NCBI GenBank assembly: GCA_030648835.1
Contig: JAUSGT010000002.1
Span: 501,458-565,457, forward strand
Source: Candidatus Moraniibacteriota bacterium
GTDB lineage: Bacteria > Patescibacteriota > Minisyncoccia > Moranbacterales > UBA1568
DNA length: 64,000 nucleotides
Reading direction: 5' to 3'
How positions within the stretch are numbered: the stretch's first letter is position 1; the number at the start of each line of letters is the position of its first letter. Position numbers and translations under genes: made by a program. Shown in pieces: positions 28,070 through 48,959 of the stretch. A model generated the notes under the pieces. That model did not search any database. It was not told where the DNA came from and saw only the letters and a list, made by a program, of their open reading frames with translations.

Positions 28070-28070
28070 T

Positions 28071-30803: not shown

Positions 30804-30904
30804 ATCCAGCACCTTCCAGAATACCTTGTGGTCTTGTCACGGGGATGAGTGGAAACATCAATCCTTTCCACAGGACTTAATACCTTGTGGTGAAGGTGCT
30901 GGAT
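30804..30904. repeat. Palindromic ~100-nt repeat element, family A, copy 1
   Basis: 12-bp terminal inverted repeat ATCCAGCACCTT / AAGGTGCTGGAT enclosing a conserved core. Begins on the base after the TAA stop of the upstream gene. Two more copies at 41115 and 48858. Confidence 0.7.
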
Positions 30905-30917
30905 AAATGCGTTTTTG

Positions 30918-32438
30918 ATGACTATGGAACCAAAAGTTATTTTTGATAAAACTATCTCGTTTTTGAGGAAGAAACCGCGCTATCTTCTCGTTTTTTTTGT
31001 ATTTATTTTTGCTATTTTCTATTACCATTTCATCATCCCTCCCCAGGCATCAAAAGGGAACAAAGCGTCGAAAGAAAAGGTACAAACTGTGCAGCCGGAC
31101 TTGGATGTGAAGCGTTCGGAAAAAATATACTCGCATATACTTCAGTCTCAAGCCGGTGATGTTTTCCGGGTGGGAGCTTTTGCCGATACCAAGAATACCG
31201 AAGATATTGAGATTTTTGCGGAGTCGGAGCTGAACGAAGTCTTGAAAATAGGTGAGTGGCACCTCGAGCCATCGGAAAACGGAGAGTACAAAGAACTGTT
31301 TTTTTCCGCACCGGGACGTTATGAAAATATCGTACTCCGTCTTCAAAAAAATGAAGAGCGGGATGCTGCCGTATCGGAACAGAATAAAACTACGATTCAC
31401 AAGAAGTGGGATGATTCAGCGGTGTATATCCGTTCATTTTTTGTATCGCGCGTAGAGGCAAGAGACGCTCTAGAATTGCGTAATTTGACCCCGACTGTTT
31501 TTGGCATCTCTTCACTGAAAAGAGATATTTTGCAGAGAGAGGAAGATGCCGGCAGGGATGCGAAAGAACAGAGCAATCTTACAGAATGGGTGTTTCAATC
31601 AAATGGAGATTCTCTTCAAGCGTTGGAGTTTAGCGGCAAAAAAGTTGGTAGCGGAAGGCAGGAATATGTTTTCAGTCTTAGACGCTATTTTCCTGACAAG
31701 AAAGAGAAAGAGGGCGAATTATTGCATACAGCGGCGTTTGTTCTTGACGCGCTTGACGATTTGTTGGTATCTATGGGGAATTACCGAATACCGTTTCCTT
31801 TTCCTCTTGTACAGGGAGAATGGTACAAAATGACTTTGGCGAAGACACCCTCAAAAGATAAAGACAATTCCTTTACTGTCGGTCCCTTGGAGGCGGATGT
31901 TGCGACCAATACTGATTCGACCGGTGATTTGGCACTCTTGATACGAGAACGCTTGCGCGCGAAGAATGATGCCAGCTTTCCCGACGGAGCCAAATTCGAA
32001 GACCTCGGGGAAAGATTCTTCTATTTTTTCTCCCTCAATGGAACACCGCTGGATTTTGCCAATGTTTTTGACGCGAGTGGGAGCATACGCTATGACGTGA
32101 AGAAACATCTGGTTACAGGCGGTCAGAAAAACAAGGAATATCTTATCTACAAATTCAATATGCCGTACCCGTTCAATCGATTCGTTCTCGAGGCGACGCA
32201 GGAAGGCAATGATGAAAAAGAAATAAAATTGGAATACTCATTTGACAACGCATTTTGGAGAGAGATCGCTTTCACTCAGGAGCCTGGCGATGCGCAGGAG
32301 TTTCTGCTTACGCTGGAGGGGGATGACAAGTCGCGTACAGTCTATGTCCGTGCCAGTTATACTGGTCCAGAGAAGAAGTCAGGATTCTTTGCATTGAAGG
32401 CGTTGAATGTTACCGCATCTATAGGGAAGACGCGATGA
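30918..32438 (+). CDS. Hypothetical exported/membrane-anchored protein (single N-terminal TM)
   Basis: N-terminal hydrophobic anchor 'LLVFFVFIFAIFYYHFII', remainder hydrophilic. No recognisable motif. Sits between two paralogous giant membrane proteins. Confidence 0.4.
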   Translation: MTMEPKVIFDKTISFLRKKPRYLLVFFVFIFAIFYYHFIIPPQASKGNKASKEKVQTVQPDLDVKRSEKIYSHILQSQAGDVFRVGAFADTKNTEDIEIFAESELNEVLKIGEWHLEPSENGEYKELFFSAPGRYENIVLRLQKNEERDAAVSEQNKTTIHKKWDDSAVYIRSFFVSRVEARDALELRNLTPTVFGISSLKRDILQREEDAGRDAKEQSNLTEWVFQSNGDSLQALEFSGKKVGSGRQEYVFSLRRYFPDKKEKEGELLHTAAFVLDALDDLLVSMGNYRIPFPFPLVQGEWYKMTLAKTPSKDKDNSFTVGPLEADVATNTDSTGDLALLIRERLRAKNDASFPDGAKFEDLGERFFYFFSLNGTPLDFANVFDASGSIRYDVKKHLVTGGQKNKEYLIYKFNMPYPFNRFVLEATQEGNDEKEIKLEYSFDNAFWREIAFTQEPGDAQEFLLTLEGDDKSRTVYVRASYTGPEKKSGFFALKALNVTASIGKTR

Positions 32439-32472
32439 GATAATCAGAAGATGCTTGTATCCGTACTACAGT

Positions 32473-34647
32473 ATGCTTTTTTTCAAGAATTTTTTTGTGG
32501 AGTATCGATGGGAAGCTCTCGGAGCTCTTGTGCTTCTTTTTGTCGTGTTTATAAACCGTTTTCCATCCGGATATATTTTTCTCGGCGGAGATGTTCTCCA
32601 GCCGATAAACATGGCAAAGAGTTTCTTTTCTTACTACTACGAGCTATTTGGGAGCGCTTCTCTGTTTTTTGGCATTTTCTATTTGCTTGACGTGCTGCGA
32701 GTGAGTGATACGGCGCAACTCTCTTGGTATCTGGGGATATTCCTGTTCGGGTCGTACGCGTCTTTTCTTACTTTTTCTTTCTTGGTTTTCCCTCAAGTGT
32801 CGAAATTGACGCGGACGATTGTGGCGCTTTTCTATGCGATGAACCTCTACACCCTGTATATCTTCACGGCCTCCTGGGGGTTTTCGCATTACCAGATAGT
32901 GTATATTTTTATTCCGATACTGACGGGTTTGTACATTAGGGTTTTGGAAACAAAGAAAGCTGTTTACGTCTTTTTCTTTTTCCTCGCTATGTTTTTTGCT
33001 TCAATGAGCTTTAGCAATCCGGCTTTTGCTCTGTCTCTTGGCATATACTTTTTTTTACTGACAATTCTCCTTTTTCTCTTCCACTTCGTCAAACCGGACA
33101 AGAGAGTTATCAAATTGATAGCCATTGTGGCAATCGGATCATCTCTCTTGAATGCCTACTGGGTACTACCGCTTTTACCACAGTTGCGTAGTGGTATCCA
33201 GGGAGTCTATGCATCAGAATTTGTAGATCTTTCAGAACGACTGGAAAAAACGTCGAACGCCATCTTCGACACCATCCGCCTCTTGCCGACGAGCGAGCAG
33301 AGCCGCTATTACCCGGCGAACTTTCCGTATCCGAATTTTTCTTGGTTGAAAAAATACCTCGTTTTTCTCGCGTTTGCTCCGTTTTTCTTGGTTCTCATCG
33401 GCTATATGAGGAAGAAAGATACAAGGGAGCGGAGACTCTATGGGACATTCTTCGTGTTGTTTGTCATTTTCACCGCACTAGTGGCTCGGGTACGCTTCCC
33501 ATTCGACACGATAAATAATTTTTTATTTCATCTCCCCGGTTTTAACGTTCTCAGGAGTTGGGACAAATTGGCAACTATCGTACCATTCCTTTTATCCATG
33601 CTTCTTCTTTTGGCGCTTGCAACGCAGGAGGGGAAACGCTATTTCAAAACCGTTCTAGCTTCCTTCGTCATCGTAGCTATTCTGCTCGCGTTGCCGTTTT
33701 ATGCCGGAGGTATTCAGACGAAACTGAGTTATATTTTTTCTACTCAGAAAGCCAAAGATTTTCGCACGGCAAAACTGAGCGCCCTCGTGAAAGTTCCTGA
33801 GGAATATTATGCCGTTACCAAAGTCATTCAGGCTGACAGGGCGGATAACAAAATCGCTATGTTGCCATTTTCTCCCGGGTCGAGCACGGGGAGGGTCAAT
33901 CTTCCGAAATGGAAAGTGAACGGACCCGACGCTACCAGTGTTTTGTATAGCAAAAAGTATGTCGAGCTGTATTCTTATTATATCCCCGGGTGGATGTTTG
34001 CCCAAGACTTCGAAAATGCCCAATATGATCCGCAGTGGATAGTTGACTTGTACGGACTCATCGGTGTGAAATATATCTTGTATCATAAGGACGCCAAGCC
34101 TGACAGCATCGAGAAAATGGAACCAGCCAGAAAATATTTGGAAAATATCGGATCAATGAAGAGTATAGATGACAACCGATTCTTCACGCTCTATACTATC
34201 GATGAAGACCGGATATTCCCGTATGTTTATGTGACGGATGAGTCGAATGTGTTTATTAAATCTAGTCCCGAGGGGCTTTCTGAGAAAGCGCAGGATTTAC
34301 ATAAGAAAGTATCTGTACCAAATTATGAACGGCAGAATCCGAAGAAAACCGTAGTGGCTGTTGATAGACTCGCGAGTCAGTCACATATATTTTTGAACGA
34401 AAAATATGATCCACTTTGGAGAGCGGAATATACAGCGCTTGATGGAAAGCGCGTCATGCTCGAGAGGGATGAAAATGTGAAGTATGCCAATGCCTGGAAG
34501 GTAGCTGATAATCTTCCAGGAGGAAGCATCGAGATATATTATGCGCCGCTCAAGCTTTTTTACATCGGACAATGGATATCGGGGATAGCACTGTTACTCA
34601 CTGTTTTCGGAATAGTGGTTACATTGCGAAAAAAGAATAATTCATAA
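32473..34647 (+). CDS. Giant polytopic membrane protein (about 725 aa), paralog of the 28071 gene, GT-C-like
   Basis: 'IFLGGDVLQPINM' after TM1 parallels 'ILLGGEGNYFTN'. More than 12 TM helices. C-terminal soluble region plus terminal TM. Confidence 0.45.
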   Translation: MLFFKNFFVEYRWEALGALVLLFVVFINRFPSGYIFLGGDVLQPINMAKSFFSYYYELFGSASLFFGIFYLLDVLRVSDTAQLSWYLGIFLFGSYASFLTFSFLVFPQVSKLTRTIVALFYAMNLYTLYIFTASWGFSHYQIVYIFIPILTGLYIRVLETKKAVYVFFFFLAMFFASMSFSNPAFALSLGIYFFLLTILLFLFHFVKPDKRVIKLIAIVAIGSSLLNAYWVLPLLPQLRSGIQGVYASEFVDLSERLEKTSNAIFDTIRLLPTSEQSRYYPANFPYPNFSWLKKYLVFLAFAPFFLVLIGYMRKKDTRERRLYGTFFVLFVIFTALVARVRFPFDTINNFLFHLPGFNVLRSWDKLATIVPFLLSMLLLLALATQEGKRYFKTVLASFVIVAILLALPFYAGGIQTKLSYIFSTQKAKDFRTAKLSALVKVPEEYYAVTKVIQADRADNKIAMLPFSPGSSTGRVNLPKWKVNGPDATSVLYSKKYVELYSYYIPGWMFAQDFENAQYDPQWIVDLYGLIGVKYILYHKDAKPDSIEKMEPARKYLENIGSMKSIDDNRFFTLYTIDEDRIFPYVYVTDESNVFIKSSPEGLSEKAQDLHKKVSVPNYERQNPKKTVVAVDRLASQSHIFLNEKYDPLWRAEYTALDGKRVMLERDENVKYANAWKVADNLPGGSIEIYYAPLKLFYIGQWISGIALLLTVFGIVVTLRKKNNS

Positions 34648-34659
34648 ACGAAATCTTAT

Positions 34660-35022
34660 ATGGACAGCACTAAAGAAGAGGTGCATTCAATTGAAACCTT
34701 TGTAAAGGGGAGAAAGCTGGATATGGGTTTTCTTCTGGCGGGGGTACTTCTCGGCATATTCTTTAGTTGGAATATCGTGGAAATTGCCATTTTTGCCGTA
34801 TTTATCTGGTCGATTATCGGTCCTATACAAAGTCGCTATTTGGCGTGGCCCGCTCTCTTTTTCTTGGCATTCACTCCCATACTGCTTACATTGGGGCGGA
34901 AGGTCCAGGCGGAGGAATTTGCCATCTATGCCTACTATTTCCTCGTGATGGCCGTCATCCGCGGCATCATCGAAGTCCGTTCCGAGTCGGATGATGACAC
35001 TCAAACCTCAGAAAAGCCCTAA
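34660..35022 (+). CDS. Small membrane protein, hypothetical
   Basis: 120 aa, three hydrophobic helices, acidic C-terminus. Confidence 0.3.
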   Translation: MDSTKEEVHSIETFVKGRKLDMGFLLAGVLLGIFFSWNIVEIAIFAVFIWSIIGPIQSRYLAWPALFFLAFTPILLTLGRKVQAEEFAIYAYYFLVMAVIRGIIEVRSESDDDTQTSEKP

Positions 35023-35102
35023 TTTGCCTGTTTTGGGAGGGTACGTTACAATATCAATAACAATTAACAAGCAACAATTAGCATTTTAGAGAACATTTTT
35101 CT

Positions 35103-36044
35103 ATGTCTGAAAATCAACCTTATTTATCCGTTGTTGTCCCGCTCTACAATGAAGAGGGGAATGTCGCAGAGTTGTATCGGAAAATCAAAGAGGCGGTCCA
35201 GAAAATCGGACTGCCGTTTGAAATTATCTTTATCGATGACGGATCCCAGGATGGCACGCTGGATGCCGCGAAGGGATTGACGCCCTTGAAACTTATCGCT
35301 TTTCGTAAGAACTTCGGTCAAACGGCGGCGTTTGACGCCGGTATCAAGGCTGCCAAGGGTGAGATTATCATCACGTTGGATGGCGACCTGCAGAATGACC
35401 CAGCGGATATCCCGCTCCTCTTAGCCAAGATGGATGAAGGCTACGATGTTGTTTCCGGGTGGCGCGTGAAACGCCAGGATCCTTGGAGTAAGAAAATCCC
35501 TTCCCGCATTGCCAATCTGCTCCGCAAAATTTTGATTCACGACAATATTCATGACTCCGGATGTAGTCTTAAGGCCTATCGCCGAGAATGTTTCAAAAAT
35601 GTCGATTTGTTCGGTGAAATGCATCGTTTTATTCCTGCTATCCTCGAACTGGATGGTTTCAAGGTATCGGAAGTGGCAGTGTCGCATTATCCGCGTATTC
35701 ATGGAGTGACGAAATACAACTGGAAACGCGGAATCAAAGGATTTGTGGATATGCTTTCCATTTGGTTCTGGCGCAAGTATTCCTATCGGCCGCTCCATCT
35801 GTTTGGCGGCGGTGGAGTGTTCTTGTTCACTATCGGGAGCGGTATTCTCGTCTGGATGCTGGTGGAAAAAGTTTTCTTTGGGGCATCGCTTGCTGAGCGC
35901 CTTTGGCCGCTCATCGGCATCTTTTTCATCCTGATCGGTGTGCAACTCTTCGTCTCCGGTCTCCTGGCTGATATGGTAGTGCGTAATTATTATCAGTCAC
36001 ACAATCGGATGAATTACTCTATACGCGAGACGCGGGAACAGTGA
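35103..36044 (+). CDS. GT2 polyprenyl-phosphate glycosyltransferase (GtrB/ArnC/DPM1-like)
   Basis: 'LSVVVPLYNEEGNV', 'IIFIDDGSQDGT', 'RNFGQTAA', 'ITLDGDLQNDPADI', two C-terminal TM helices. Confidence 0.8.
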   Translation: MSENQPYLSVVVPLYNEEGNVAELYRKIKEAVQKIGLPFEIIFIDDGSQDGTLDAAKGLTPLKLIAFRKNFGQTAAFDAGIKAAKGEIIITLDGDLQNDPADIPLLLAKMDEGYDVVSGWRVKRQDPWSKKIPSRIANLLRKILIHDNIHDSGCSLKAYRRECFKNVDLFGEMHRFIPAILELDGFKVSEVAVSHYPRIHGVTKYNWKRGIKGFVDMLSIWFWRKYSYRPLHLFGGGGVFLFTIGSGILVWMLVEKVFFGASLAERLWPLIGIFFILIGVQLFVSGLLADMVVRNYYQSHNRMNYSIRETREQ

Positions 36045-36153
36045 TAACTTGTAGTAAGTATCAAGTATTGAGTATAGTGTATAGAATCGGTATAAAAATC
36101 CGACATGCATTTTTATACATAATACGTGATACATAATACCTAATGCATATTGT

Positions 36154-37464
36154 ATGAAAATAACTTTTCTCGGGACGGGATATGTGGGATTGGTATCGGG
36201 CGCCTGTATGGCGGAAATCGGACACGAGGTGATTTGCGCGGACATCGACAAGAAAAAAATTGGGCTTTTGAAGAAAGGCGGGATTCCTATTTATGAAATC
36301 GGTTTGGAAGAAATCGTCGCGCGCAATGTCAAAGAAGGGCGCCTGAGCTTCACTACCGATCTGAAAAAAGCCATCCAGGAATCCGAGGTGGTGTTTATGG
36401 GAGTGGGGACTCCGGAGGACAAGGTGACCGGTCAGGCTGATCTCCAGTACGTATTCGCGGTGGCCGAGACCTTCGGCAAACATTTGAATGGTTACAAGGT
36501 GTTCGTGGACAAGTCTACCGTGCCGGTGGGAACGGCAGAAAAAGTAGAGGAAATCATCAAGCTTGCGTCCAAAGGGAAACATCCTTTCGATGTTGTTTCC
36601 AATCCGGAGTTCTTGCGCGAAGGAGCCGCCGTGAAGGATTTTCTCAACCCTGATCGCGTCGTGGTGGGCACCAAATCAACCAAGGCCCGCAAGCTGATGG
36701 AGCAGATCTATCGACCGTTGGCGCGCAGCGGCCGACCGATTATGTTTACCGATATACGCAGCGCGGAAATCATCAAATACGCCGCCAACGCCTTCTTGGC
36801 GATGAAAATCACCTTTATGAATGAGGTGGCGAATTTCTGCGATGTCGCCGGTGGCAACGTGAAAGAAGTGTCCAAGGGATTGGGCTATGACTCGCGCATC
36901 GGTGGGCGCTTTCTCTATGCCGGTATCGGGTACGGTGGTTCTTGTTTCCCCAAAGATGTGAAGGCATTTCTCGAATCCGGACGTGAGTACAATTCACATT
37001 TTCATATTATGGAGACGGTCTACGATGTGAATGTTGCTCAGCGCATCAAACCGTTTGTGAAACTGAAAGTTGAATTTAATAACCAGCTGAAAAACAAGAC
37101 TATCGCCGTGTGGGGACTAGCTTTCAAGCCGCGTACGGACGATATTCGCGAAGCGCCCGGAGTCGAAAACATCAAACTTTTTTTGGAGGAGGGATCGAAA
37201 GTGAGGGCATTCGACCCGGTGGCGATGCCCAATACCAAGAAAGTTCTTCGTCACAAGAATCTGACGTATACCAAGAAAGCGATCGATGCCTTGAAAGGCG
37301 CTGATGCACTGGTCATCTGCACGGAGTGGGATGAATTCCGCGTGATGGATTACAAAGAAGTGAAGAAATTGATGAAGGGCAAGATTATCTTCGATGGGCG
37401 CAACGTCTTGGAACGCAGTGAGGCGGAGGGTGAAGGCTTTACCTATTTTGGCATTGGAGCATGA
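36154..37464 (+). CDS. ugd: UDP-glucose 6-dehydrogenase
   Basis: 'MKITFLGTGYVGLVSGACMAEIGHEVICADID', 'GGSCFPKDV', 'GLAFKPRTDDIREAP'. Confidence 0.9.
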   Translation: MKITFLGTGYVGLVSGACMAEIGHEVICADIDKKKIGLLKKGGIPIYEIGLEEIVARNVKEGRLSFTTDLKKAIQESEVVFMGVGTPEDKVTGQADLQYVFAVAETFGKHLNGYKVFVDKSTVPVGTAEKVEEIIKLASKGKHPFDVVSNPEFLREGAAVKDFLNPDRVVVGTKSTKARKLMEQIYRPLARSGRPIMFTDIRSAEIIKYAANAFLAMKITFMNEVANFCDVAGGNVKEVSKGLGYDSRIGGRFLYAGIGYGGSCFPKDVKAFLESGREYNSHFHIMETVYDVNVAQRIKPFVKLKVEFNNQLKNKTIAVWGLAFKPRTDDIREAPGVENIKLFLEEGSKVRAFDPVAMPNTKKVLRHKNLTYTKKAIDALKGADALVICTEWDEFRVMDYKEVKKLMKGKIIFDGRNVLERSEAEGEGFTYFGIGA

Positions 37465-37588
37465 GTCTAATTTTCAATTTCCATTTTCCAATTTTCAATA
37501 AATTTTCAAAAAAAGAATTTTCAAGTTATTTGAATATTGAGAATTGATTATTCAATGAAAATTGTGAATTGATAATTGATCATTGAAT

Positions 37589-38755
37589 ATGAAGGTATTA
37601 TTTCTCAATTATGAATATCCTCCACTTGGGGGTGGGGCGAGTGTGGCGACAGAAGCGATACTGAAAGAGTGGTCCGCTCTGCTTGATATGGAGGTGCATT
37701 TGGTGACTGCATCCGTAGGTGCTGTTTTGGAACAGAGCCGGCTTGGCAACAATGTTCACATCCATCGCGTACCGATCGGAAAAAATCCGCAAAAACTGCA
37801 TTCCCAGTCACTCAAGGATATCTTGGTTTATAGCGTGAAGACCTGGTTTTTTTTGCGGACGTTTCTTCGAGAGGAATGTAAAAAGCAGAAGTTTGACGTG
37901 ACTTTGGCATTTTTTACGGTGCCTTGTGGGTTCATCGCTTACCTGGTTAAACTTTTCTATCGTATCCCGTATGTGGTGTCGCTCCGCGGCGCGGACGTGC
38001 CGGGATTCAGCGAAAAGTATGATACGTTTTATCTTTTTGCCAAGCCGTTGGTGCGTTTTCTTTGGAAACATGCGGAAAAAGTGATCCCCAATAGTATCGG
38101 TATCCGTGACTTGGCACAAAAAACAAGCGCGCATCAGCCGATGGAAGTCATCGAGAACGGTGTCAATACGGAGACCTTTCACCCGAAAAACGAGGGAAAA
38201 TCTTTCTCTCCGGTAATTTTTCTTTCCACTTCGCGCCTGACACCGCGCAAGGGCATTCATTCCCTCATCGAAGCCTTCGCCTTAGTGATCAAATATGCCA
38301 AAGTACCGGTTGAACTTCATCTCATCGGAGAGGGGGAACAGAAAGAACCGCTTGAGGCGCGAGTGAAGGAACTCGGGATAGAAAATCAAGTCAAATTTTT
38401 CGGGCGCGTGGAACATCGGCTCCTCCCACAGTTCTATCAAAAGGCGCATGTGTTTGTCCTACCATCGAAGAACGAAGGGATGAGCAATTCCGCCTTGGAA
38501 GCTCTGGCAAGCGGGCTGCCGCTCGTGGTTTCCGGTACCGGAGGGATGCAGGAGTTGGTGACGGAGGGCAAGAACGGATTTTTCATCGATCCGGAGTTGA
38601 CAGCTCCTTTTGCGGAAACGCTTCTCAGCCTGGTGCAGAATCAGGGGAGTCTCATCGCCTTCGGCCGAGAAAGCCGCCAGCGGGCGGAACTGCGTGGCTG
38701 GGACAAAGTCGCTCTGCATTTCAAAAACGCTCTCGAGCAAAGTATCAGAAAGTAG
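37589..38755 (+). CDS. GT4 glycosyltransferase
   Basis: 'YPPLGGGASVATEAI' N-terminus, 'PSKNEGMSNSALEALASGLPLVVSGTGG'. Confidence 0.8.
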   Translation: MKVLFLNYEYPPLGGGASVATEAILKEWSALLDMEVHLVTASVGAVLEQSRLGNNVHIHRVPIGKNPQKLHSQSLKDILVYSVKTWFFLRTFLREECKKQKFDVTLAFFTVPCGFIAYLVKLFYRIPYVVSLRGADVPGFSEKYDTFYLFAKPLVRFLWKHAEKVIPNSIGIRDLAQKTSAHQPMEVIENGVNTETFHPKNEGKSFSPVIFLSTSRLTPRKGIHSLIEAFALVIKYAKVPVELHLIGEGEQKEPLEARVKELGIENQVKFFGRVEHRLLPQFYQKAHVFVLPSKNEGMSNSALEALASGLPLVVSGTGGMQELVTEGKNGFFIDPELTAPFAETLLSLVQNQGSLIAFGRESRQRAELRGWDKVALHFKNALEQSIRK

Positions 38756-38779
38756 ACTGAATATTTTTTTAGGAAATTT

Positions 38780-38818
38780 AAAAGCCGGATGGAACGTAGT
38801 TATCGTTCACCGGCTTTT
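38780..38818. terminator. Bidirectional hairpin terminator candidate between convergent genes
   Basis: AAAAGCCGG ... CCGGCTTTT 9-bp stem flanked by A-run and T-run. Confidence 0.5.
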
Positions 38819-38833
38819 ATTGTGCGTCGCGTT

Positions 38834-39971: not shown

Positions 39972-40025
39972 GAAGAAAATTAAGACGATTTATGTTAGAG
40001 TAAAGCAGAAATCATTTTATAGTGA

Positions 40026-40162
40026 CATGCCCGGTAGTGAAATTTCGACTAAGTTTTATTGGCCTAGCTATATAAGGGCTAGTGTTTGGTTTTTAAATAT
40101 AAATGTTTATTGAGTTTTTTTGACATAATGCAAATGTCGAAATTCTACTACCGGGTATGCGT
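40026..40162. repeat. Inverted-repeat cassette, family B, copy 1 (25-bp IRs about 110 bp apart; right IR contains the ATG of the downstream gene)
   Basis: CATGCCCGGTAGTGAAATTTCGA ... TCGAAATTCTACTACCGGGTATGCG. A degenerate extra box lies at 39871-39905. Confidence 0.6.
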
Positions 40163-41089
40163 AAAAACCTCCTGACCGCGGGGAAAATCCTCATAACGTT
40201 GGCACTGGTATTCTGGCTGATTGAGCGCGTCGATTGGCGGGGGGTATTGGCGCAGCTCTCCTCCATCACCTGGCCGCTCTTGTTTCTCTATGTCGTTTTT
40301 CAGCTGCTCGGTAATCTTATTTCCGCCAAGAAATGGCAGACTATCGGACGTTTTAAAGGGCTCGACTTCAGTTTGCGAGAAGCGTTCTTCGCTTATTTGG
40401 CAGGGACATTCATCAACAACTTCTTGCCATCCACCATTGGTGGCGATGCCTACCGTACTATTTGGTTGGTGAAGCGCTCCGGCGCGCGCGCGGCCGCTCT
40501 TTCCACGGTTATTTTTGATCGTTTCATCGGACTGTGGACGATCGCTCTTTTGGCACTCTTGTTCAGTCCGGTGTTGTTTCCTTTTATGAAAGAAAGTCTC
40601 CCGCTTTCTCTCTCCTACATCACCCTCGTCGTTTTTTTCGTGGTAGATCTCGTCATCACGTACGCGTACTGTCAAGCATGGTTTCATACTCTCGTGGCGC
40701 GCCTACCGTTTCACAAACTGCGCCGCTTTTTGGAAGAGATTATTTTTTACACCAAAAAACACATCTGGCTCAAAACCAGTCTCTGGTCAGCTCTCTTCAT
40801 CTTTGTCGGCTTGGTACTTTCCAACTTTACCTTGTTCCACGCTCTGGGAAGTGATATTGGGATTCTTCCCTTTGCGAGCGTCATGTTCCTTGTGGCCATC
40901 GTCGCGTCTATCCCGATCTCGATCAATAATATCGGTATCAAGGAGTGGGCTTATATCACCTTCTTTGGCCTGGTCGGGGTGAGCGTAGAAACGGCCGTGA
41001 CGGTGGCGCTCCTCTCCCGCTTCATCCAGATGCTTCTCTCTTTCATCGCTTTGCCGCAATACTTGAGGAAAGAAGATACCAAACAATAG
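40157..41089 (+). CDS. UPF0104 flippase-like membrane protein (lysyl-PG synthase TM-domain family)
   Basis: 'FINNFLPSTIGGDAYRTIWLVKRSG' family signature. 8 TM helices. Confidence 0.6.
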   Translation: MRKNLLTAGKILITLALVFWLIERVDWRGVLAQLSSITWPLLFLYVVFQLLGNLISAKKWQTIGRFKGLDFSLREAFFAYLAGTFINNFLPSTIGGDAYRTIWLVKRSGARAAALSTVIFDRFIGLWTIALLALLFSPVLFPFMKESLPLSLSYITLVVFFVVDLVITYAYCQAWFHTLVARLPFHKLRRFLEEIIFYTKKHIWLKTSLWSALFIFVGLVLSNFTLFHALGSDIGILPFASVMFLVAIVASIPISINNIGIKEWAYITFFGLVGVSVETAVTVALLSRFIQMLLSFIALPQYLRKEDTKQ

Positions 41090-41114
41090 ATATTTTTAAA
41101 AAGATTTTTCGTTT

Positions 41115-41209
41115 ATCCAGCACCTTCCAGAATACCCCGTGGTCTTGTCACGGGGGTAAATGGAAACATCAATCCATCCTGCGTGGTTCAATACCCTAAG
41201 GTGCTGGAT
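41115..41209. repeat. Palindromic repeat element, family A, copy 2
   Basis: ATCCAGCACCTTCCAGAATACCCCGTGGTCTTGTCACGGGGG...AAGGTGCTGGAT. The last 5 codons (NPAP*) of the convergent minus-strand gene are encoded inside it. Confidence 0.7.
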
Positions 41210-43034
41210 TTACTTTGACGACCTTGATAAAGTTTCCTTGACGGTTGCCGATAAAAAGTTGCCAAGCCGGATTGGGCGCGTTGTAATATCGGTACGCCGT
41301 GAGCCCCGATTTTTCTTCCCAGCGATCGTATTTCGGCATATAGCGGATCTGTCCGCGGCGCGTGAGGACGTAGTAATCCGGGTGGAGCGTTTCTTTATCG
41401 AATGAGTAGGCCGTGAGGCAACGCCCGACAAAAAATTCGCAGACGCCGTAGTAATCCGACCAGACGGTGAGCCGCTCTGCGTTTGGGAGACCATTCAGGT
41501 AGACCGCGGCTTCGTAGCCGCCATAGCCCCAGGCATCACTGATGAGGGCGTTTTGAGGGAGGAGGAAATTGGTGTAATTGAAGTAGAAAGGTTTGATGGT
41601 GATGAGACTGGCAAGCGAGCCCAAGAAAATGATGGAGGTTATGAAAAACGGCGTCCATCGTGGGGTGAACTTTTCACAGATAAACCAGAAACCAAGGGCT
41701 GCCAAAAAAGCGAAAAGAGGATAGAGGAAAACGCTGTAGCGCGGCGTCGAGAGGACATTGGAAAAAAGAAGGAGAAGTGTGTACGCGAGAGCGAAAAGGA
41801 GTAAACCGGAAGAGAAAAACGAATAGTTGTTTTTCTTTTTTACTATAAGCGTGGTGAGGAGAGCCGTCAGTCCCAAGAGTACGAGTGGCGTGAGTGAAAA
41901 GATTATCGGGTTCCATTCCAGAAGCAAGGCTTCCAAAAAGCGGGGAGTGTCCGTATAGTAGCGGGCGTTGGAAAGGTCTTTGATGTCGAAAGGGATGAGC
42001 GCGAAGATTCTCCACCCGGCAAAAAAGTTTCGGGCGATGATGAGGAAGAAAAAAATACCCAAAAACAGAAATGGTAGCGCGCGCGAGAGAGGAACAAGAA
42101 ATTTCCGGTAAAGGGTACGGACAAAGAAGAGGAACTTGTTTTTGAAAATGAAGGTGTCGAGGGCGAGCACGCCAAGGAGGAGTCCTCCACTTGAAAAGAA
42201 GATCAGTTTATGGGGAAGGGCAAGGAAGAAGGCATCTCGGGCGCTCGGACTGATGAGAAGAGCGGGAAGAAAAAGGCACAGAAGAATGAGCGCGCCAAAA
42301 ACAATTATGGTCCATTGGATGAGAGATTTCTTCAAAGCGCTCCGCAGAGTTTCATCGGTCGTCTCATCGGCACGCAAGAAGCGGAAAAGAATAAGCGCCA
42401 AGAAGAAAGGAAAGAGAATAAGTGCCGTGTATTTGGAAAGGAGTGCCAAGCCGGTACAGACGACAGTGAGCCACAGGAATTTCTTTTCTTCGGATTTTAA
42501 GAGGGCGAAAAAAGAAAATATCGCCACCATACCGAAGGACCAGAGGAGACTGTCGGGATTCACGATTTGCGAGATGCCCAGCAGAATCGGTGAAAGGGCC
42601 GAAAGGAGAGTAGTCCAGAGAGCGATCCAAGGATTCGTCAGTTTGACAATGAGAAAAAAGAGAAGGAAGAGAAGGCATCCGTTCAAAATGAGAAGAGGGA
42701 GACGAAAGTCTCTGTATATCGCCTCTACCCGATTCGTTTGGCAGGTGAGTATTTTGGCGTTGCTTTCGACGCATAGTGTCTTGGAATCGGGGTCGAGAAA
42801 GTAGCCTATGCCGGAAACCAAAGCCAGACTCACGCCGGGCTTGTCGTTGATAAAGGTTTTCTTCCATTTGCTGTTGGCTACGGCATCCCAGTATTGCGGG
42901 ACGCGTTCATAGACCCAGTAGTGCTCGTCCGCGGTGATGAACTTTCCCAGGTGTTGGAGGCCAAAGAAAAAATACGCGGAGAAAACAAGCGCCAATGAGA
43001 TATGGAAAAAATATCTGTTGAGAAAACCAAGCAT
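41196..43034 (-). CDS. GT-C polytopic glycosyltransferase, ArnT/PMT (GT39/83)-like
   Basis: 'FITADEHYWVYE' DE-motif in first extracytoplasmic loop, 'DKPG', about 13 TM helices, C-terminal soluble domain. Confidence 0.6.
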   Translation of the reverse strand: MLGFLNRYFFHISLALVFSAYFFFGLQHLGKFITADEHYWVYERVPQYWDAVANSKWKKTFINDKPGVSLALVSGIGYFLDPDSKTLCVESNAKILTCQTNRVEAIYRDFRLPLLILNGCLLFLLFFLIVKLTNPWIALWTTLLSALSPILLGISQIVNPDSLLWSFGMVAIFSFFALLKSEEKKFLWLTVVCTGLALLSKYTALILFPFFLALILFRFLRADETTDETLRSALKKSLIQWTIIVFGALILLCLFLPALLISPSARDAFFLALPHKLIFFSSGGLLLGVLALDTFIFKNKFLFFVRTLYRKFLVPLSRALPFLFLGIFFFLIIARNFFAGWRIFALIPFDIKDLSNARYYTDTPRFLEALLLEWNPIIFSLTPLVLLGLTALLTTLIVKKKNNYSFFSSGLLLFALAYTLLLLFSNVLSTPRYSVFLYPLFAFLAALGFWFICEKFTPRWTPFFITSIIFLGSLASLITIKPFYFNYTNFLLPQNALISDAWGYGGYEAAVYLNGLPNAERLTVWSDYYGVCEFFVGRCLTAYSFDKETLHPDYYVLTRRGQIRYMPKYDRWEEKSGLTAYRYYNAPNPAWQLFIGNRQGNFIKVVKVNPAP

Positions 43035-43163
43035 ACCCAGTAGTGAAACTTCGATAGTTTTTTAGGAAAACTATCTCTGTGTATCAAATGTTATTTTTTA
43101 TCAATGCTTCTTATGAAAGATTCCACCATAATACTTAATCGAAGTTCTACTACTGGGCATAGC
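43030..43163. repeat. Inverted-repeat cassette, family B, copy 2
   Basis: AGCATACCCAGTAGTGAAACTTCGA ... TCGAAGTTCTACTACTGGGCATAGC. Left IR overlaps the ATG (on minus) of the 41196..43034 gene. Right IR abuts the stop of the 43163..45433 gene. Confidence 0.6.
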
Positions 43164-45433
43164 TATTGTTCAAAACGGAACACTTTGACGAAGTGCGACG
43201 GACGATTATTGATGAGGATGTGGAAGAGCGGATTGGTTTTCGTGTAGTACTGATCAAAACGGATGATTCCGGGTTTATTATTGGCGATATCTCCGCCCAT
43301 CATCTTGGTTGTTCGACTCTGGCGGCCGGCAGAAACGACGATATAGTCGAGCCCGTTTTCCCGCATCATCGCATAGTTCCGACTGCTTGAGCATCGGCCG
43401 ACGAAGAATTTGCATACTCCATCTTTGTCCGTCCAAATGAGCATATTTTTGGCCTCAGGCAAGGAGTTCAGATACTGGGCGGCCTCATAGCTCCCCGCGC
43501 CCATATCTTTCACGTCAACGCTGTATTTGGCCGGCAGGAGCGCTGAGGCATAGCTCAGGGGAAAGGGTGTGAGAAAAAGCGTCAGCCCTCCCAAGAGGAT
43601 AACGAGAGAAGTCACGAAGACCGGTGTCGGCATTTCTTTGAGGGAGAATTTTTTGTGGATGGCAGTCAGACAATGTTCGAGAGTAATCCCGGCGATAATG
43701 GCGGCCAGGGGGAAGATGATAATCTGGTAACGGACAATCGCTCCCACGTGATTGACGGTTGTTCCGAGATAGTAGAGGAGAGTGAAGACGATGAGGTAGA
43801 AAGAAGTGCGCAAGGCGACCGATTCCGCAAAATGTTTTTTGAGAAAGAAAAAGGGCGCGATAATAAGAAAGAGGAAAACGAGCGGAGTGATACCGAAAAG
43901 GAGCGGGTAGAAATTCGTGAGGTAGGCGCCGATGAAATCGCTTTTGTCGGCAATCGTCTTGGGCGAGGCGAGGAGTTCCATAAAGTGATAGGGTGTCATA
44001 CCGAGCCACGTATCGAGAAGAGTGAAGGAAACAGCCGTAAAAAATATTCCACCGATGACCCAGGCGAGAGTGTGTTTTAGTTTTTGGAACAGGCTCAAAA
44101 TGACGCCGGTGAAACGGGATGCGTTCAGCCATTGATCGAGAAGAATGAGAAGCGTGACCACCAGAAAGAGAGGAGCCACTTTTTCAAAGGCTTGGCTTCC
44201 GAGGGTGGAGGTGAAGAGTTTCATTGGTTTGATCCACACGGCTGGAAAGAGAATGTAAAAAGTGGTGAGCGCCGCAAAGGTGAGGAGGGCAAGATGCTCA
44301 AGCGATTTTTTCAGGTAGCGAGTGAAAGGAATGAGCGCCTGTTTGGGATGGTAGAGATATTCGAGGAAAATGAGACCGAGGAAAAAAACAAAAAGAATAT
44401 TGGCGACATACTTGGTGAGGAGCGCCAAACCGAGAAAAATTCCGGAGAAGATGAGATAGCGAAACGAGCCACGTTTCTGAAATACAAGGTACGAGAGGAG
44501 CGAAAGCGGAGCAAAGACCCAAAGCAGCGAATCAGGGTTGATGATTTTGGTTATACCGATCAAGACCGGGGAAAGCGCGATAAAAGCGAAGCCGAACACA
44601 GCGTGTCTTCTCCCGAGCAGGCGTTCCAGAAAAAAGTAGAAAAGCGGCAGGAAGAGCGTGACAAAGAGAAGCTGTGGGAGACGGAAAGCGAAGTAATAGC
44701 TTTTTACATCGTTTTTGAGGTTGAGAACCTCACCTTGGTAGTGCGTGGTACGGTACTCTTTGGTCGATTTGAAAAATGTGCCGGGCCCGGTTACCAGAGC
44801 CACGGTAATACCCGGTTTATCGCTGATACCGGTGCCTTTCCAATCGCGCTCCCCGATATTTTTCCAGTATTTGGCGATGCGACCATCGATCCAGAGTGGT
44901 TCATCGACTGCGGCATACTCTGTGAGGCGGGAGAGTCCGAAAACAAAAAACATTCCTGTTACGATGAGGATGAGGAGAAGCGTCGGCAACCCTTGGGCGA
45001 TGAACCAATTCTTGCAGGTCAGCGCTTCACTGTCGATTCTGTTTTCAGCGGCGCGTTCTTTGCCAATGAACAGGGCGGAAACGAGTACACCGCTCGCGAT
45101 AACGTACATCCCAAGCGCTATCCAGAAAATATAGTGAAAATGACGAGAGGCGCTGAGGCCATAGGCCAAAATGAGTATGCCCGGAAGCCAGATGAGGAGC
45201 AGCCGGGAAAGCCACTTTTTCCAATCGAATTGCGAAGAAAAATAGGCAACCGCGCCTAAAGAAAGTACGCCGGCAATGGCGAAACCGAGATAAAATGGAT
45301 TGTTGCTCGAAGCGAGACGAAAGAGCGCGAGAGAATTTACTTGAAGAGAAACAAAGAGAAGTGTAAGCAATGCGTTGCAGACTGTCAAAATCCCGTAGAC
45401 ACGTTTTTCTTGGTTATCGAAAAAAGCCAACAT
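43163..45433 (-). CDS. GT-C polytopic glycosyltransferase, ArnT/PMT-like (tandem paralog)
   Basis: 'AAVDEPLWIDG' DE-motif, 'DKPGITVALVTG'. More than 14 TM helices. Confidence 0.6.
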   Translation of the reverse strand: MLAFFDNQEKRVYGILTVCNALLTLLFVSLQVNSLALFRLASSNNPFYLGFAIAGVLSLGAVAYFSSQFDWKKWLSRLLLIWLPGILILAYGLSASRHFHYIFWIALGMYVIASGVLVSALFIGKERAAENRIDSEALTCKNWFIAQGLPTLLLILIVTGMFFVFGLSRLTEYAAVDEPLWIDGRIAKYWKNIGERDWKGTGISDKPGITVALVTGPGTFFKSTKEYRTTHYQGEVLNLKNDVKSYYFAFRLPQLLFVTLFLPLFYFFLERLLGRRHAVFGFAFIALSPVLIGITKIINPDSLLWVFAPLSLLSYLVFQKRGSFRYLIFSGIFLGLALLTKYVANILFVFFLGLIFLEYLYHPKQALIPFTRYLKKSLEHLALLTFAALTTFYILFPAVWIKPMKLFTSTLGSQAFEKVAPLFLVVTLLILLDQWLNASRFTGVILSLFQKLKHTLAWVIGGIFFTAVSFTLLDTWLGMTPYHFMELLASPKTIADKSDFIGAYLTNFYPLLFGITPLVFLFLIIAPFFFLKKHFAESVALRTSFYLIVFTLLYYLGTTVNHVGAIVRYQIIIFPLAAIIAGITLEHCLTAIHKKFSLKEMPTPVFVTSLVILLGGLTLFLTPFPLSYASALLPAKYSVDVKDMGAGSYEAAQYLNSLPEAKNMLIWTDKDGVCKFFVGRCSSSRNYAMMRENGLDYIVVSAGRQSRTTKMMGGDIANNKPGIIRFDQYYTKTNPLFHILINNRPSHFVKVFRFEQ

Positions 45434-45526
45434 AGGAGGTTGCTTCAGAGCTTAAAATGGTTTAAAATGAAGGAAAGTTTACTTGTATCCTAGCCTAATT
45501 TAGGGAAAAAAGAAAGGCTGAAAAGT

Positions 45527-47314
45527 GTGTTTCAATTTTCTTCAAAGCAACTGGTAATTATCTCCTTGATAGCCATCATTTTATTTGGGGGTTTTTTGCG
45601 TACGTATCATTTTTCCGACTGGCTTCATTTTGAATTGGATCAGGCGCGGGATGCGCGCGTCGTCGATGACGCTCTTTCCCTGGGACCGGGTGAGTTGACG
45701 CTTTTGGGACCGAAGGCTGGCGGGACAGCGCTTCGTCTGGCGCCGGGATTTTATTATCTGGAGTATGTGAGCGCGCTCGTATTTGGTGGAACGCCCGCCG
45801 GTATGGCGGCGTTTGTGATGATCTTTTCCGTTCTTTCCCTTCCGCTTTTTTACTTTTTGCTCCGGAGGTTTTTCCCTTGGAAATTTTCTCTGGCGTTGAC
45901 ACTGCTTTTTGCCGTTTCGGAATACGCGGTGATGTACGGACGGTTCGCGTGGAATCCGAACCTTATCCCATTCTTCTCACTCTTGGGGTTCTACGCGCTT
46001 CTCCGATCGGTCGATCACGAAGAATCAAGGAAGAGTGGATGGTTCCTTGTCTCGGTTTTTTCCCTTACTTTGGCGACCCATTTTCACTTTCTCGCTTTTC
46101 TCGCCTTGCCGGCTATTTTTGTGCTTTTTCTTGTTTTTCGTCGGCCGCGTTTTCCTTGGAAAACATGGGTTTGGGCCGGAATAATTGCTCTCTGTCTCTA
46201 CGCGCCGCTTCTTTTGAATGAAATGGAAACCGGCGGCGCCAATACGCGTGAATTTTTCAAAGCGGTGACCGAAAAATCAAATAACGAAAAGCATTCTTTG
46301 ATTGAAAAGGCTCTTCGTGACGTATCGGGGCACGCGCTTTCCGGTATGGTTATCACGACCGGTTTTGAAGGGGGTACATTTCCGGCGGTGGTTGTCGCGA
46401 AGGAAGGTAAATGGATAGACTGGACCTGCGATAACCGCTGTGATAAGGGGAAATGGTATGGGATAGCGGCCACGCTCGTTTTCATAGCCAGTCTTTTTTC
46501 GCTTGGGTGGCTGTGGTTCAGGACAATGGAACGCAAACGACTCGATTTTCTGCTCCTCTGTGGGATATGGTTCGGTGTTACTTTTACTCTTTTCTTGCCG
46601 CTCGCGTATGATATCGTTCCGAGATTTTTTCTCCTTTCCCTTCCGCTTTTCTTTATTTTTATCGGGTTTGTTTTATTCTCCATAAGAAAGCTTTTCGGTG
46701 CCAGTCGAATCGTACGCCAGGCGGTATGGATACTGCTTGCTCTTCTTGTCGTTTCCAATCTTTTTTTCCTGACGCAGCGTTTTGACGAATTGTCGCAAGC
46801 CGGGAGCGCGGCCATCGATAGCCCGCCGGATCGTATTTTGAAGGAACGCATTCGTGTGACACTGGAGCAACAGAATGCGATTGTAGATTTTCTCGGGGAG
46901 CGTTTCCAAAAAACGGGCTACCCGGTGTTTATGTGGAGCGAACCTCAGCACCGTCGCGCGCTCAAGTACCTCTTGGAAAAACGTGGAATAGAGAATGCCG
47001 TCTTGGGTTTTGATGGGGTATATCGGCAAGGCGTTTACTATCTTATTTTACGGGCCCAATCCGATCTTGAGGACGCGCTCAAGAAATATCGCGCAAGCTA
47101 CACAGTCGGGAAGACGACCTCATTCGGGACGCTGGTTGTGATCGAACTCATGCCAAAACCGGAAGCTATCATGGGTGAACGCAGGGATTTTTCGGCGGCG
47201 AAACCTGTGGAAATCAAATCTTCACCGCGCTATACCTGGCGGGAATATTTCAGTCGCAATTTTTCTCAACCTGAGAACATAAAAGAGGATATCGAAGACG
47301 CAGAAGATAATTAA
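45527..47314 (+). CDS. GT-C-like polytopic membrane protein (ArnT/DUF2029-like)
   Basis: GTG start. 'FELDQARDARVVDD' acidic loop after TM1. About 11 TM helices plus C-terminal soluble domain. Confidence 0.45.
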   Translation: MFQFSSKQLVIISLIAIILFGGFLRTYHFSDWLHFELDQARDARVVDDALSLGPGELTLLGPKAGGTALRLAPGFYYLEYVSALVFGGTPAGMAAFVMIFSVLSLPLFYFLLRRFFPWKFSLALTLLFAVSEYAVMYGRFAWNPNLIPFFSLLGFYALLRSVDHEESRKSGWFLVSVFSLTLATHFHFLAFLALPAIFVLFLVFRRPRFPWKTWVWAGIIALCLYAPLLLNEMETGGANTREFFKAVTEKSNNEKHSLIEKALRDVSGHALSGMVITTGFEGGTFPAVVVAKEGKWIDWTCDNRCDKGKWYGIAATLVFIASLFSLGWLWFRTMERKRLDFLLLCGIWFGVTFTLFLPLAYDIVPRFFLLSLPLFFIFIGFVLFSIRKLFGASRIVRQAVWILLALLVVSNLFFLTQRFDELSQAGSAAIDSPPDRILKERIRVTLEQQNAIVDFLGERFQKTGYPVFMWSEPQHRRALKYLLEKRGIENAVLGFDGVYRQGVYYLILRAQSDLEDALKKYRASYTVGKTTSFGTLVVIELMPKPEAIMGERRDFSAAKPVEIKSSPRYTWREYFSRNFSQPENIKEDIEDAEDN

Positions 47315-47326
47315 AAATCCATACTT

Positions 47327-48847
47327 ATGCATTGGAAACAAACTGTGACTGTACTCGCGATCATTGTCGTTGTAGGAACGGCACTCCGTTTTTCCGGACT
47401 GGGCGGCAACTCTTTTGTAGCGGATGAATTTTTGGATATGAATTCGGCGTATGGATATTCGCAAACGGGGCAGTGGAAGGCTTGGGATTTCAACTTCGGC
47501 ACATTGTCCGAAATCAACATTAACGCTCCACGTGATGAACGGGCGGTCGTCTATAAATGGCAGGTAGCACAGATCTTCCATTTTTTGCCACCGACTGAAG
47601 CTGTCGCGCGTTCTGTCAGCGTTCTCTGGGGAATCGTTTCCTTTCTCGTGGTTTTTTGGGCGGCGTACACGATGACGAAACGTCGGGAAATCGGACTGAT
47701 CGCGGCTTTTCTGTTTGCCGTTTCGGTGAGTGGTATTGTACTTGATCGGACGCTCCGGATGTACGCGATGTTCTTCCCGCTCTACCTTGCGACAGCTACG
47801 TTCGCGTTTCTCGCTTTGGAGAGAATGTATGTCGGAAAAATGCGCTTTTGTCGGTACGTGTGGGAAAAATGCGGCATCCATATACATTTCGCGTTGGCGG
47901 CCGGAGCATTCTTTCTTCTTTCGCTTTTGACACACCAGCTGACGGGAACGTTTGTTTTCGTCCTGGCCGCGTACCTTCTGGCGGGGGCACTCTTAGCATA
48001 CCGACAGGGGCAAACCCTCAAGAACAAGTATTTTATTTTACTGTGCGTTCTCTTCGTCAGCGTGGCAGGTATAGCGATTTTTTTCCCGAAATTTTTCCGC
48101 TCTTTCGCTTCCGGGCTGGTTTTCTTCGACAATCATTACGGTTATGTGGGTTACGTTCTCCGTGATTACTACCATCCTCTTTTGGCGACTCTGCTTATTC
48201 TTTTCGGTGGGTGGTGGATTGCCAAGCGTGAGCATATGCCGAAAGAATCGCTCTGGCTCACTCTCTCGCTTCTCATACCGCTTATGATGGCGATATGGAT
48301 GTGGCGGCGCAATGTCGGAGCGCAGTATATATTTTTTGTCCAGTCGTTTGCCCTGATACTGGTTTCCGGGGGTATTTTTGGCTTCTGGAGGCTTATTCAG
48401 GAGAAATGGAGCCTCAAGGCAAGAGCAATGTCTTTACTTGTTCTCGGTGTCATATTGCTCTTGGTACCGAACTGGGGCTATTTTGGTGAGGAAAATAACA
48501 CATATCACGAGACCTCGTCCGGAGACAACCCGAATTATCGAAAGGTCTTCACCTATTTCAAGAAAAATCATCAAGTGACAGATGTCCTGGTAACGCGTAA
48601 CGTTCGCAATTACTACTTTAGCGGCGCGAAAGTGCCTGTCTACGACCTCGGGGATGAGATTTCACAGACGCATCTGACGCAGACAGATTTAGAAAGGTTG
48701 ATGACGGAATATCAAACCGGTTGGGTGATCCTTTCGGACAATGACTATGACTATGTCGGCAAAGGAGTGAAAGAATTTCTGAACAAGAATCTGATTCGTG
48801 TCAGCAATGATCAGGTGCGCGGTATGATCGATGTGTACCGCTGGTAA
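47327..48847 (+). CDS. GT-C polytopic glycosyltransferase, ArnT/PMT-like
   Basis: 'GGNSFVADEFLDMNSAYGYSQTGQW' DE-motif loop. About 11 TM helices. Confidence 0.6.
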   Translation: MHWKQTVTVLAIIVVVGTALRFSGLGGNSFVADEFLDMNSAYGYSQTGQWKAWDFNFGTLSEININAPRDERAVVYKWQVAQIFHFLPPTEAVARSVSVLWGIVSFLVVFWAAYTMTKRREIGLIAAFLFAVSVSGIVLDRTLRMYAMFFPLYLATATFAFLALERMYVGKMRFCRYVWEKCGIHIHFALAAGAFFLLSLLTHQLTGTFVFVLAAYLLAGALLAYRQGQTLKNKYFILLCVLFVSVAGIAIFFPKFFRSFASGLVFFDNHYGYVGYVLRDYYHPLLATLLILFGGWWIAKREHMPKESLWLTLSLLIPLMMAIWMWRRNVGAQYIFFVQSFALILVSGGIFGFWRLIQEKWSLKARAMSLLVLGVILLLVPNWGYFGEENNTYHETSSGDNPNYRKVFTYFKKNHQVTDVLVTRNVRNYYFSGAKVPVYDLGDEISQTHLTQTDLERLMTEYQTGWVILSDNDYDYVGKGVKEFLNKNLIRVSNDQVRGMIDVYRW

Positions 48848-48857
48848 AAACGAATAA

Positions 48858-48959
48858 ATCCAGCACCTTTCACCACAGGGTATTAAAACCCGTGGGAGGG
48901 ATTTATATTTTCATTCATCCCCATGGCAAGACCACAGGGTATTTTGGAAGGTGCTGGAT
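48858..48959. repeat. Palindromic repeat element, family A, copy 3 (inverted orientation)
   Basis: Reverse complement aligns base-for-base with copy 1 over about 100 nt. Sits between convergent genes. Confidence 0.7.

Follow-up and report, generated by a model that had tools for sequence, protein, structure and literature searches.

Three repeats of about 100 nt in a 64,000-nt stretch of a Candidatus Moraniibacteriota genome (contig JAUSGT010000002.1, positions 501,458 to 565,457; "the window" below is this whole stretch) are, at a probability we put near 80%, copies of a family of miniature transposable elements with inverted repeats (MITEs), non-autonomous DNA transposons spread through bacteria of the candidate phyla radiation (CPR, or Patescibacteria) and similar in behaviour to the Rickettsia palindromic elements (RPEs). 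A sequence-only reading of the window had located the three copies, the last inverted, and offered three explanations: a MITE, a REP-like terminator or mRNA-stabilising element, and a structured RNA or protein-binding site coordinating nearby GT-C-type membrane glycosyltransferase genes. It also named target-site duplications and compensatory base changes as features to look for. Its coordinates are unchanged here (Table 1), and its MITE candidate gains support from target duplications at the window copies and most relatives, two empty sites, a large number of copies including 28 that are identical, and the unrelated gene contexts in which copies lie.

The window copies share a mean identity of 85% by alignment and each has the perfect 12-bp terminal inverted repeat ATCCAGCACCTT/AAGGTGCTGGAT that had been read from the sequence; ATCCAGCACCTT has six exact matches in the window, which are the six element ends, and none elsewhere. 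The direct repeat AATACCYTGTGGT occurs twice in every window copy, near either end (seven matches against 0.74 expected). A covariance model built from relatives recognised the copies with E values of 1e-16 to 1e-20 and, run with filters off, returned no match above 15 bits in the rest of the window. The single-strand fold of each copy is far more stable than those of shuffled sequences on both strands (z -3.5 to -6.0). Target duplications are intact at all three copies, and copy 2 has lost 6-7 nt near its right end.

We scanned one genome per species, covering 185,579 species, for the two 12-mers at a spacing of 55-85 nt and recovered 98 loci, mostly in CPR metagenome-assembled genomes (MAGs), where about 0.1 would be expected by chance on our own estimate. 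Host lineages include Doudna-, Magasanik-, Falkow-, Moran-, Levy-, Kuenen-, Taylor- and Saccharibacteria. The covariance model confirmed 94 copies in 27 species-representative genomes together with the window, among them at least 35 in the Doudnabacteria MAG MFEF01 (28 of them identical; a genome that is presumably small, if typical of the CPR), 11 in Magasanikbacteria MFQY01 and nine in Falkowbacteria JACRDY01; the closest relatives of the window copies are those of Moranbacteria MFSB01. About ten more loci have the same ends and flanks around an AT-rich interior that can no longer be aligned. Three loci from Candidatus Enterocola (L017, L045 and L055), with the 12-mers 105 nt apart in PD40-repeat coding sequence, were set aside as a chance match outside the family.

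Insertion into a TTTA target

Read in the orientation of the model, the element is preceded by TTT and followed by TTATT, with counts of 92, 85 and 84 of 94 for the left flank and 86, 83, 90, 84 and 74 of 94 for the right. In a 4-bp register, 77 of the 94 copies are flanked by TTTA/TTTA, five by TAAA/TAAA and one by TTCA/TTCA. All 35 MFEF01 copies are TTTA/TTTA, and the other 59, window included, divide into 42 TTTA/TTTA, five TAAA/TAAA, one TTCA/TTCA and 11 with unequal flanks. The off-consensus TTCA repeats agree at both junctions, as a true duplication predicts. The orientation of the interior is thus nearly constant relative to an asymmetric target (77 TTTA versus five TAAA); copy 1 belongs to the five in the rare orientation, its interior running the opposite way with respect to the target duplication. 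Four JACRDY01 copies have unequal flanks, three pairing a TTTA-type with a TAAA-type repeat (L044, L050 and L012) and one (L036) having TTTA as its left flank and TAAT as its right; the mixed flanks are as expected if recombination between copies had inverted chromosome segments.

Two empty sites document the insertion. A close relative (locus L102), whose neighbouring protein is 94% identical, reads GATTTTTCATTCACTTTGACG where copy 2 reads GATTTTTCGTTT[ATCC..95 nt..GGAT]TTACTTTGACG, a net gain of the element plus 2 nt. Two changes, both synonymous in the minus-strand gene (GTG AAT to GTA AAC), separate the inferred pre-insertion sequence GTTTAC from the ATTCAC of the relative. The fifth base is unequal between the two repeats at copy 2 and the relative agrees with the right-hand one, so the duplicated stretch is at most 4 bp. 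The duplicated unit is TTTA if the element is taken to end in T..A; the same junctions can just as well be read as TT around ends AT..AT. The second empty site lies in a GmrSD/HNH protein of MFEF01 that is 403 aa long; homologues at least 90% identical have 369 aa, exactly 34 residues fewer. The DNA of this gene reads GCGCGAG TTTAT TTATAAA when empty and GCGCGAG TTTAT[CCAGC...GCTGGA]TTTAT TTACAAA in MFEF01. Both empty sites hold one copy of bases that the filled sites hold twice, which shows that the element inserts into a TTTA motif, usually TTTATT, with duplication of the target.

Elsewhere comparisons were limited by divergence. Relatives of the copy 3 neighbours are at most 77% identical, too distant for an empty site, and relatives of MFEF01 UvrC beyond the strain cluster are at most 72% identical, which leaves no DNA-level empty site; six strain variants of the UvrC region show internal deletions only, with no presence/absence polymorphism. 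As a separate observation, a GmrSD/HNH nuclease gene is at least 90% identical between one Doudnabacteria MAG (L027:3790-5001) and one Taylorbacteria MAG (L230:3001-4110), which suggests that a defence gene has recently passed horizontally from one CPR lineage to another.

Fold and decay of the element

Elements range from 40 to 122 nt, below the limit of about 300 bp used for MITEs, and cannot encode a transposase; the typical unit measures about 100 bp. The terminal inverted repeats are perfect over 12-14 bp, (A)TCCAGCACCTT(CC), with the end pair TCCAGCACCTT..AAGGTGCTGGA and a length of 14 bp in many relatives, and the consensus reads ATCCAGCACCTTCC AGAATA CCCCGCAGC TTG CTGCGGGG ATGAATGG CTCAATATAGCC TTC CTGCGGGG TGCAATA CCCCGACAG GAAGGTGCTGGAT. 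As a single strand the consensus folds into a cloverleaf whose closing stem, 14 bp long, bears three hairpins (-60 kcal/mol, z -7.7, on either strand). The internal GC hairpin of the sequence-only reading (P2) and the GGAAAC..TCC hairpin are both real. Hairpins P2 and P4 are one 8-bp duplex capped at opposite ends, which gives rise to the two direct repeats AATAC-CCCCGCAG and the two of CTGCGGGG. The interior is asymmetric: one strand scores about 117 bits with the model, its complement about 41.

We examined pairing in 54 distinct sequences aligned without reference to the fold. Cells were paired in 87.6% of cases, compared with 40-51% when partners were slid, and double-sided changes numbered 112 against 52 +/- 5.6 in shuffles. 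RNAalifold, applied to a MAFFT alignment, gave the terminal stem alone, so the structure was written by hand and its pairs counted; the terminal 12 bp are fixed by the search pattern and are therefore uninformative in this comparison. Compensatory change in the hairpins is equally expected of a mobile palindrome. Rfam yielded no match in the window at the gathering threshold, and a consensus copy searched at a permissive threshold gave sub-threshold chance matches only.

The element decays by deletion between its internal direct repeats. At one site in Doudnabacteria strains a 69-nt form has arisen by deletion between the two CTGCGGGG repeats, and in other strains a 42-nt form at the same site by deletion between two AATACCCCG repeats. 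There is also a simple hairpin, 40 nt long, flanked by TAAA/TAAA.

Stop codons, protein ends and in-frame copies

In 19 of 107 loci the element boundary coincides exactly with the stop of an open reading frame (ORF) that is at least 100 codons long. This association arises because the target on the other strand is TAAA, usually AATAAA, and so holds TAA; the motif is duplicated on insertion, so the stop codon survives, as at copy 1. The element begins there directly after a TAA, as the sequence-only reading had it: the first three bases of the left duplication (30801-30803) are the stop of ORF 28053-30803. At copy 2 the element landed 12 nt upstream of a stop, and the relative's protein end ...VKVNEKSF* reads ...VKVNPAP* in the window. 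Copy 2 replaced the last four codons of a GT-C glycosyltransferase gene (41196-43034, minus strand). The earlier proposal that copy 2 donates the gene's last five codons and stop therefore stands for the C-terminus and the stop, and is reduced in extent: the element contributes Pro-Ala-Pro and a TAG, preceded by two bases of an Asn codon.

Of the 94 copies, 13 are within long ORFs and another five provide a C-terminal tail, with in-frame copies in UvrC, RecX, GmrSD/HNH, Wzy_C, YfhO and PMT_2 proteins. Insertion of the 100-nt form, the commonest length, brings in 102 nt (34 codons), and the consensus has three open frames out of six, so that copies can also persist in frame at tolerant positions of genes. 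The length is frame-neutral in 35 of 67 distinct elements, where about 22 would be expected, and open frames average 1.67 per element against 0.86 in shuffles, both figures being indicative only since the sequences are related. The MFEF01 UvrC insert occupies residues 454-488 in the RNase H-like endonuclease domain, at a linker of variable length among homologues, and is present in all four full-length strain variants; the RecX insert lies between the second and third helical domains. Other CPR UvrC proteins have unrelated insertions at the same linker (RRF to WPxPDL), such as SLRGAKQRSNLKNEIATQPVAARNDL in P0244, which look like translated repeats of other families, and this linker may be a place where small mobile palindromes generally accumulate.

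A host-selected role in RNA would account for the same positions differently: the element could be a cis-acting structure, stabilising mRNA 3' ends, directing processing or terminating transcription, that spread through its usefulness at gene ends. Consistent with this, the fold is very stable on both strands, ORF stops abut many copies, TTATT follows the stem in the canonical orientation and copy 1 lies within a co-directional gene pair. The stop-codon link is, however, already explained by the TAAA target, and a gene whose TAA abuts the element usually reads a hairpin followed by AAA rather than a U-tract. The copies inside coding sequence, the separate terminator-like hairpin beside copy 3 and the 28 identical copies in one genome, which indicate recent transposition rather than site-by-site selection, likewise argue against it. 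We consider such a role very improbable as the reason for the element, and with it the REP-like terminator or stabiliser of the sequence-only reading; a side effect on mRNA is possible where the element is transcribed. An intrinsic terminator in the strict sense, a GC-rich hairpin with a U-tract directly behind it at the 3' end of a transcription unit, does not fit the multi-branched 100-nt fold, the AAA after the hairpin or the copies inside ORFs.

More improbable still, to the point of being barely credible, is a small structured RNA gene or regulatory site coordinating neighbouring GT-C glycosyltransferase genes. The three window copies do lie within a glycan-synthesis gene cluster, the folded core is conserved with covariation, and several in-gene copies in other genomes fall within membrane genes of glycosyltransferase type (PMT_2, Wzy_C and YfhO). 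Against these points, Rfam matches no family, and clustering of the ORFs beside copies in 25 genomes found no recurrent neighbour, no family occurring in more than four of the 25. Copies also lie in UvrC, RecX and nuclease genes and beside unrelated genes. TTTATT encodes Phe-Ile, and membrane proteins rich in these residues may simply offer many targets, which may be why PMT_2, Wzy_C and YfhO genes are hit. The statement that all three window copies flank GT-C genes holds for copy 2, where PMT/PMT_2 matches make it the one copy with a demonstrable GT-C neighbour; for copy 3 it rests on the annotation of one homologue, and at copy 1 the adjoining genes have no Pfam match and no similarity to the GT-C genes.

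Probable mobilization in trans

The target duplication points to a staggered-cut transposase acting in trans. Such an enzyme, encoded elsewhere, would recognise the conserved ends and make a staggered cut at the target; the two element ends would differ functionally, giving the orientation bias, and the hairpins would serve mobility, or tolerance of the element, rather than a host function. Several results weigh against this MITE reading. We found no long element with the same ends in 745 kb around copies; single ends in the loci were contig-end truncations and one-mismatch chance matches only, and all-against-all BLASTN of the loci gave no multi-copy segment of at least 180 nt other than the orthologous Enterocola loci. 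The absence of a recurrent gene family beside the element in the 25 genomes leaves no candidate partner there. In viral contigs the full element pattern had no match and the 14-mer gave chance matches only; two apparent end pairs there, 887 and 2294 nt apart, were rejected for absent flanks and mismatched ends. A symmetric cut-and-paste transposase would not ordinarily use a non-palindromic target with a 77:5 bias in orientation. One copy, found by the model only, has compensatory ends, ATCCAGCGCC/GGCGCTGGAT, which hints that pairing of the ends matters besides their sequence. Finally, several copy-bearing MAGs have non-CPR labels (Gammaproteobacteria, Thermodesulfobacteriota, Nitrospirota or Syntrophaceae), which may reflect mis-binning, and the genome scan demanded perfect ends, so that end conservation is overstated by design.

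A single-strand (HUH) enzyme, or another that reads structure, is still a candidate in view of the asymmetric target, the orientation bias and the structure-preserving changes. The element could be REPIN- or PATE-like: an HUH (Y1) transposase, of IS200/IS605 or RAYT type and encoded by the host, would bind it at the hairpins and move it in single-stranded form. TTTA(T) would be the cleavage and target motif, and its presence in the 3' end of the element itself would give the appearance of a duplication. Hairpins kept through compensatory change, the copy with compensated terminal stem, the strict orientation at an asymmetric target and the failure to find an insertion-sequence (IS) partner despite long persistence across CPR lineages all fit this model. 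The canonical strand also favours the G-rich strand, 50 to 28, a mild bias that points the same way and is too weak to decide the mobilising enzyme. Perfect 12-14-bp terminal inverted repeats are nevertheless foreign to IS200/IS605 ends as generally known, and the two hairpins are not equivalent on either strand. At copy 2 the right repeat (TTTAC) is nearer the relative's TTCAC than the left, favouring a true duplication of at most 4 bp, and no Y1 transposase gene stands beside copies, whereas RAYT genes are usually flanked by their REPs. We regard this model as unlikely.

A related and rather doubtful idea is that the element is the REPIN-like partner of a conserved host-encoded Patescibacteria enzyme, for example a domesticated single-strand transposase or recombinase, that reads the cloverleaf and inserts it one way at TTTA. 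If true, this would explain why ends are identical across candidate phyla, why hairpins are compensated and why no IS has the same ends, and it would make the element a regular source of 34-residue insertions in CPR proteins.

Relation to known mobile repeats

In behaviour the family resembles the RPEs. Both are palindromic selfish repeats of about 100-150 bp in small genomes of host-dependent bacteria, both are intergenic as well as in frame in conserved protein genes at tolerated positions (here the 34-aa inserts in UvrC, RecX and GmrSD/HNH), and neither has an identified transposase. The CPR element differs from RPEs in host clade, in its sharp 12-14-bp terminal inverted repeats, in the TTTA duplication shown here and in its fixed orientation. 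The Correia elements of Neisseria (CREE/NEMIS) are likewise MITEs of about 100-150 bp with terminal inverted repeats and a short AT-type duplication, abundant near gene ends, co-transcribed with neighbours and lacking a known transposase. Correia elements have repeats of about 26 bp, a TA duplication, an IHF site and promoter elements; the CPR element has 12-14-bp repeats, a TTTA (or TT) duplication, a fixed orientation and some in-frame copies, and no sequence similarity to them was seen.

REPINs, the RAYT-mobilised REP doublets, resemble the CPR element as long-hairpin units of about 100 nt that persist within lineages, sit in intergenic sites after stop codons and lack an IS-like partner with the same ends. 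REPs make no target duplication, carry a GTAG-type 5' motif and flank their RAYT genes, whereas the CPR element duplicates its target and no linked gene was found. IS200/IS605-derived PATE elements have no terminal inverted repeats, carry equivalent subterminal hairpins on one strand and insert 3' of a fixed tetra- or pentanucleotide; the CPR element shares the fixed target and orientation, and differs in having inverted repeats, unequal hairpins and, at copy 2, a favoured duplication. ERIC/IRU, RUP, BOX and cyanobacterial MITEs such as Nezha are also small, structured, non-coding genome-wide repeats that sometimes lie in transcribed regions, but they are other sequence families in other hosts, and none is reported from the CPR in the literature searched. 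Integron attC sites were rejected: the CPR element has ends ATCCAGC/GCTGGAT with TTTA flanks and copies dispersed in both orientations, in contrast to the RYYYAAC ... GTTRRRY ends and same-orientation arrays of attC.

Full-text literature searches returned unrelated papers only for either 12-mer, and none describing a MITE or palindromic element in CPR bacteria. We class the family as a new one of a known kind, a MITE that behaves like the RPEs; what sets it apart is its distribution over candidate phyla and how strictly it keeps to one target and one orientation. CPR genomes are small and gene-dense and are usually described as poor in mobile DNA, and given that reputation a MITE family common to many candidate phyla is of practical and evolutionary interest. 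The element breaks short-read assemblies, alters protein ends and lengthens proteins such as UvrC and RecX by 34-residue segments. It accounts for a class of truncated genes and odd "insertions" in CPR MAGs and provides markers at the level of strains, and its strict choice of target and orientation is a handle on the transposition enzyme.

The window copies and their neighbours

For the window itself the consequence is modest: one GT-C gene with a rewritten C-terminus and two intergenic regions with a strong hairpin. Copy 1 takes up the space from ORF 28053-30803 to the next gene of its co-directional pair, which starts at about 30918, and copy 2 lies within the 3' end of its minus-strand GT-C gene. 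A Logan assembly contig of the same organism stops inside copy 2, as is usual for assemblies at repeats. Copy 3 lies, as first described, between convergent genes, 47327-48847 (plus strand) and 49015-50481 (minus strand), 10 nt past the stop of the former.

Table 1. Element copies, internal repeats and target duplications, in window coordinates
Feature	Positions	Strand	Details
Copy 1	30804..30904	+	101 nt; covariance model 87.2 bits
Copy 1, first internal direct repeat AATACCTTGTGGT	30820..30832	+	includes 5' arm of hairpin P2
Copy 1, second internal direct repeat AATACCTTGTGGT	30879..30891	+	spans loop and 3' arm of hairpin P4
Copy 1, left target duplication TAAA	30801..30804	+	read from sequence; register from empty sites and flank counts
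Copy 1, right target duplication TAAA	30904..30907	+	read from sequence
Copy 2	41115..41209	+	95 nt; covariance model 72.1 bits
Copy 2, left target duplication TTTA	41112..41115	+	sequence and empty site in L102
Copy 2, right target duplication TTTA	41209..41212	+	sequence and empty site in L102
Copy 3	48858..48959	-	102 nt; covariance model 83.7 bits
Copy 3, target duplication TAAA (+ strand)	48855..48858	+	read from sequence
Copy 3, target duplication TAAA (+ strand)	48959..48962	+	read from sequence

Directly after copy 3 stands a strong hairpin (48963-49006), preceded by an A-run and followed by a T-run, that was not caught by the consensus scan; at -25.5 and -21.3 kcal/mol on its two strands it looks like a bidirectional terminator separate from the element. 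A second, AT-rich intergenic repeat, AATTTCTAATAYCCAATACCYAAT..., occurs in three to four copies at 37469-37502, 52621-52654 and 61137-61170 (and 36120-36150); it is unrelated to the palindromic element, with a weak 15-bit model match at 52631-52709.

Three further observations come from the loci of other genomes. In Taylorbacteria MHSB01000049.1 (L067:7782-7887) the two 12-nt ends enclose a complete tRNA-Pro(UGG) gene; they form a 13-bp stem there, and the usual TTTA flanks are absent. The outer flanks resemble halves of another tRNA; ARAGORN, with introns allowed, finds tRNA-Pro alone, and the idea of a tRNA intron was considered and dropped. Two copies 620 nt apart in L027 (615-714 and 1235-1334) have an identical right flank (TTATTGATCCCGGAA), suggesting tandem duplication of a segment holding the element and a DUF456 gene. 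In L224-L229, at about 300-2150, an HSP70/DnaK gene encodes 612 aa in three strain variants and 427 aa in one, and is split into 455 and 210 aa in another.

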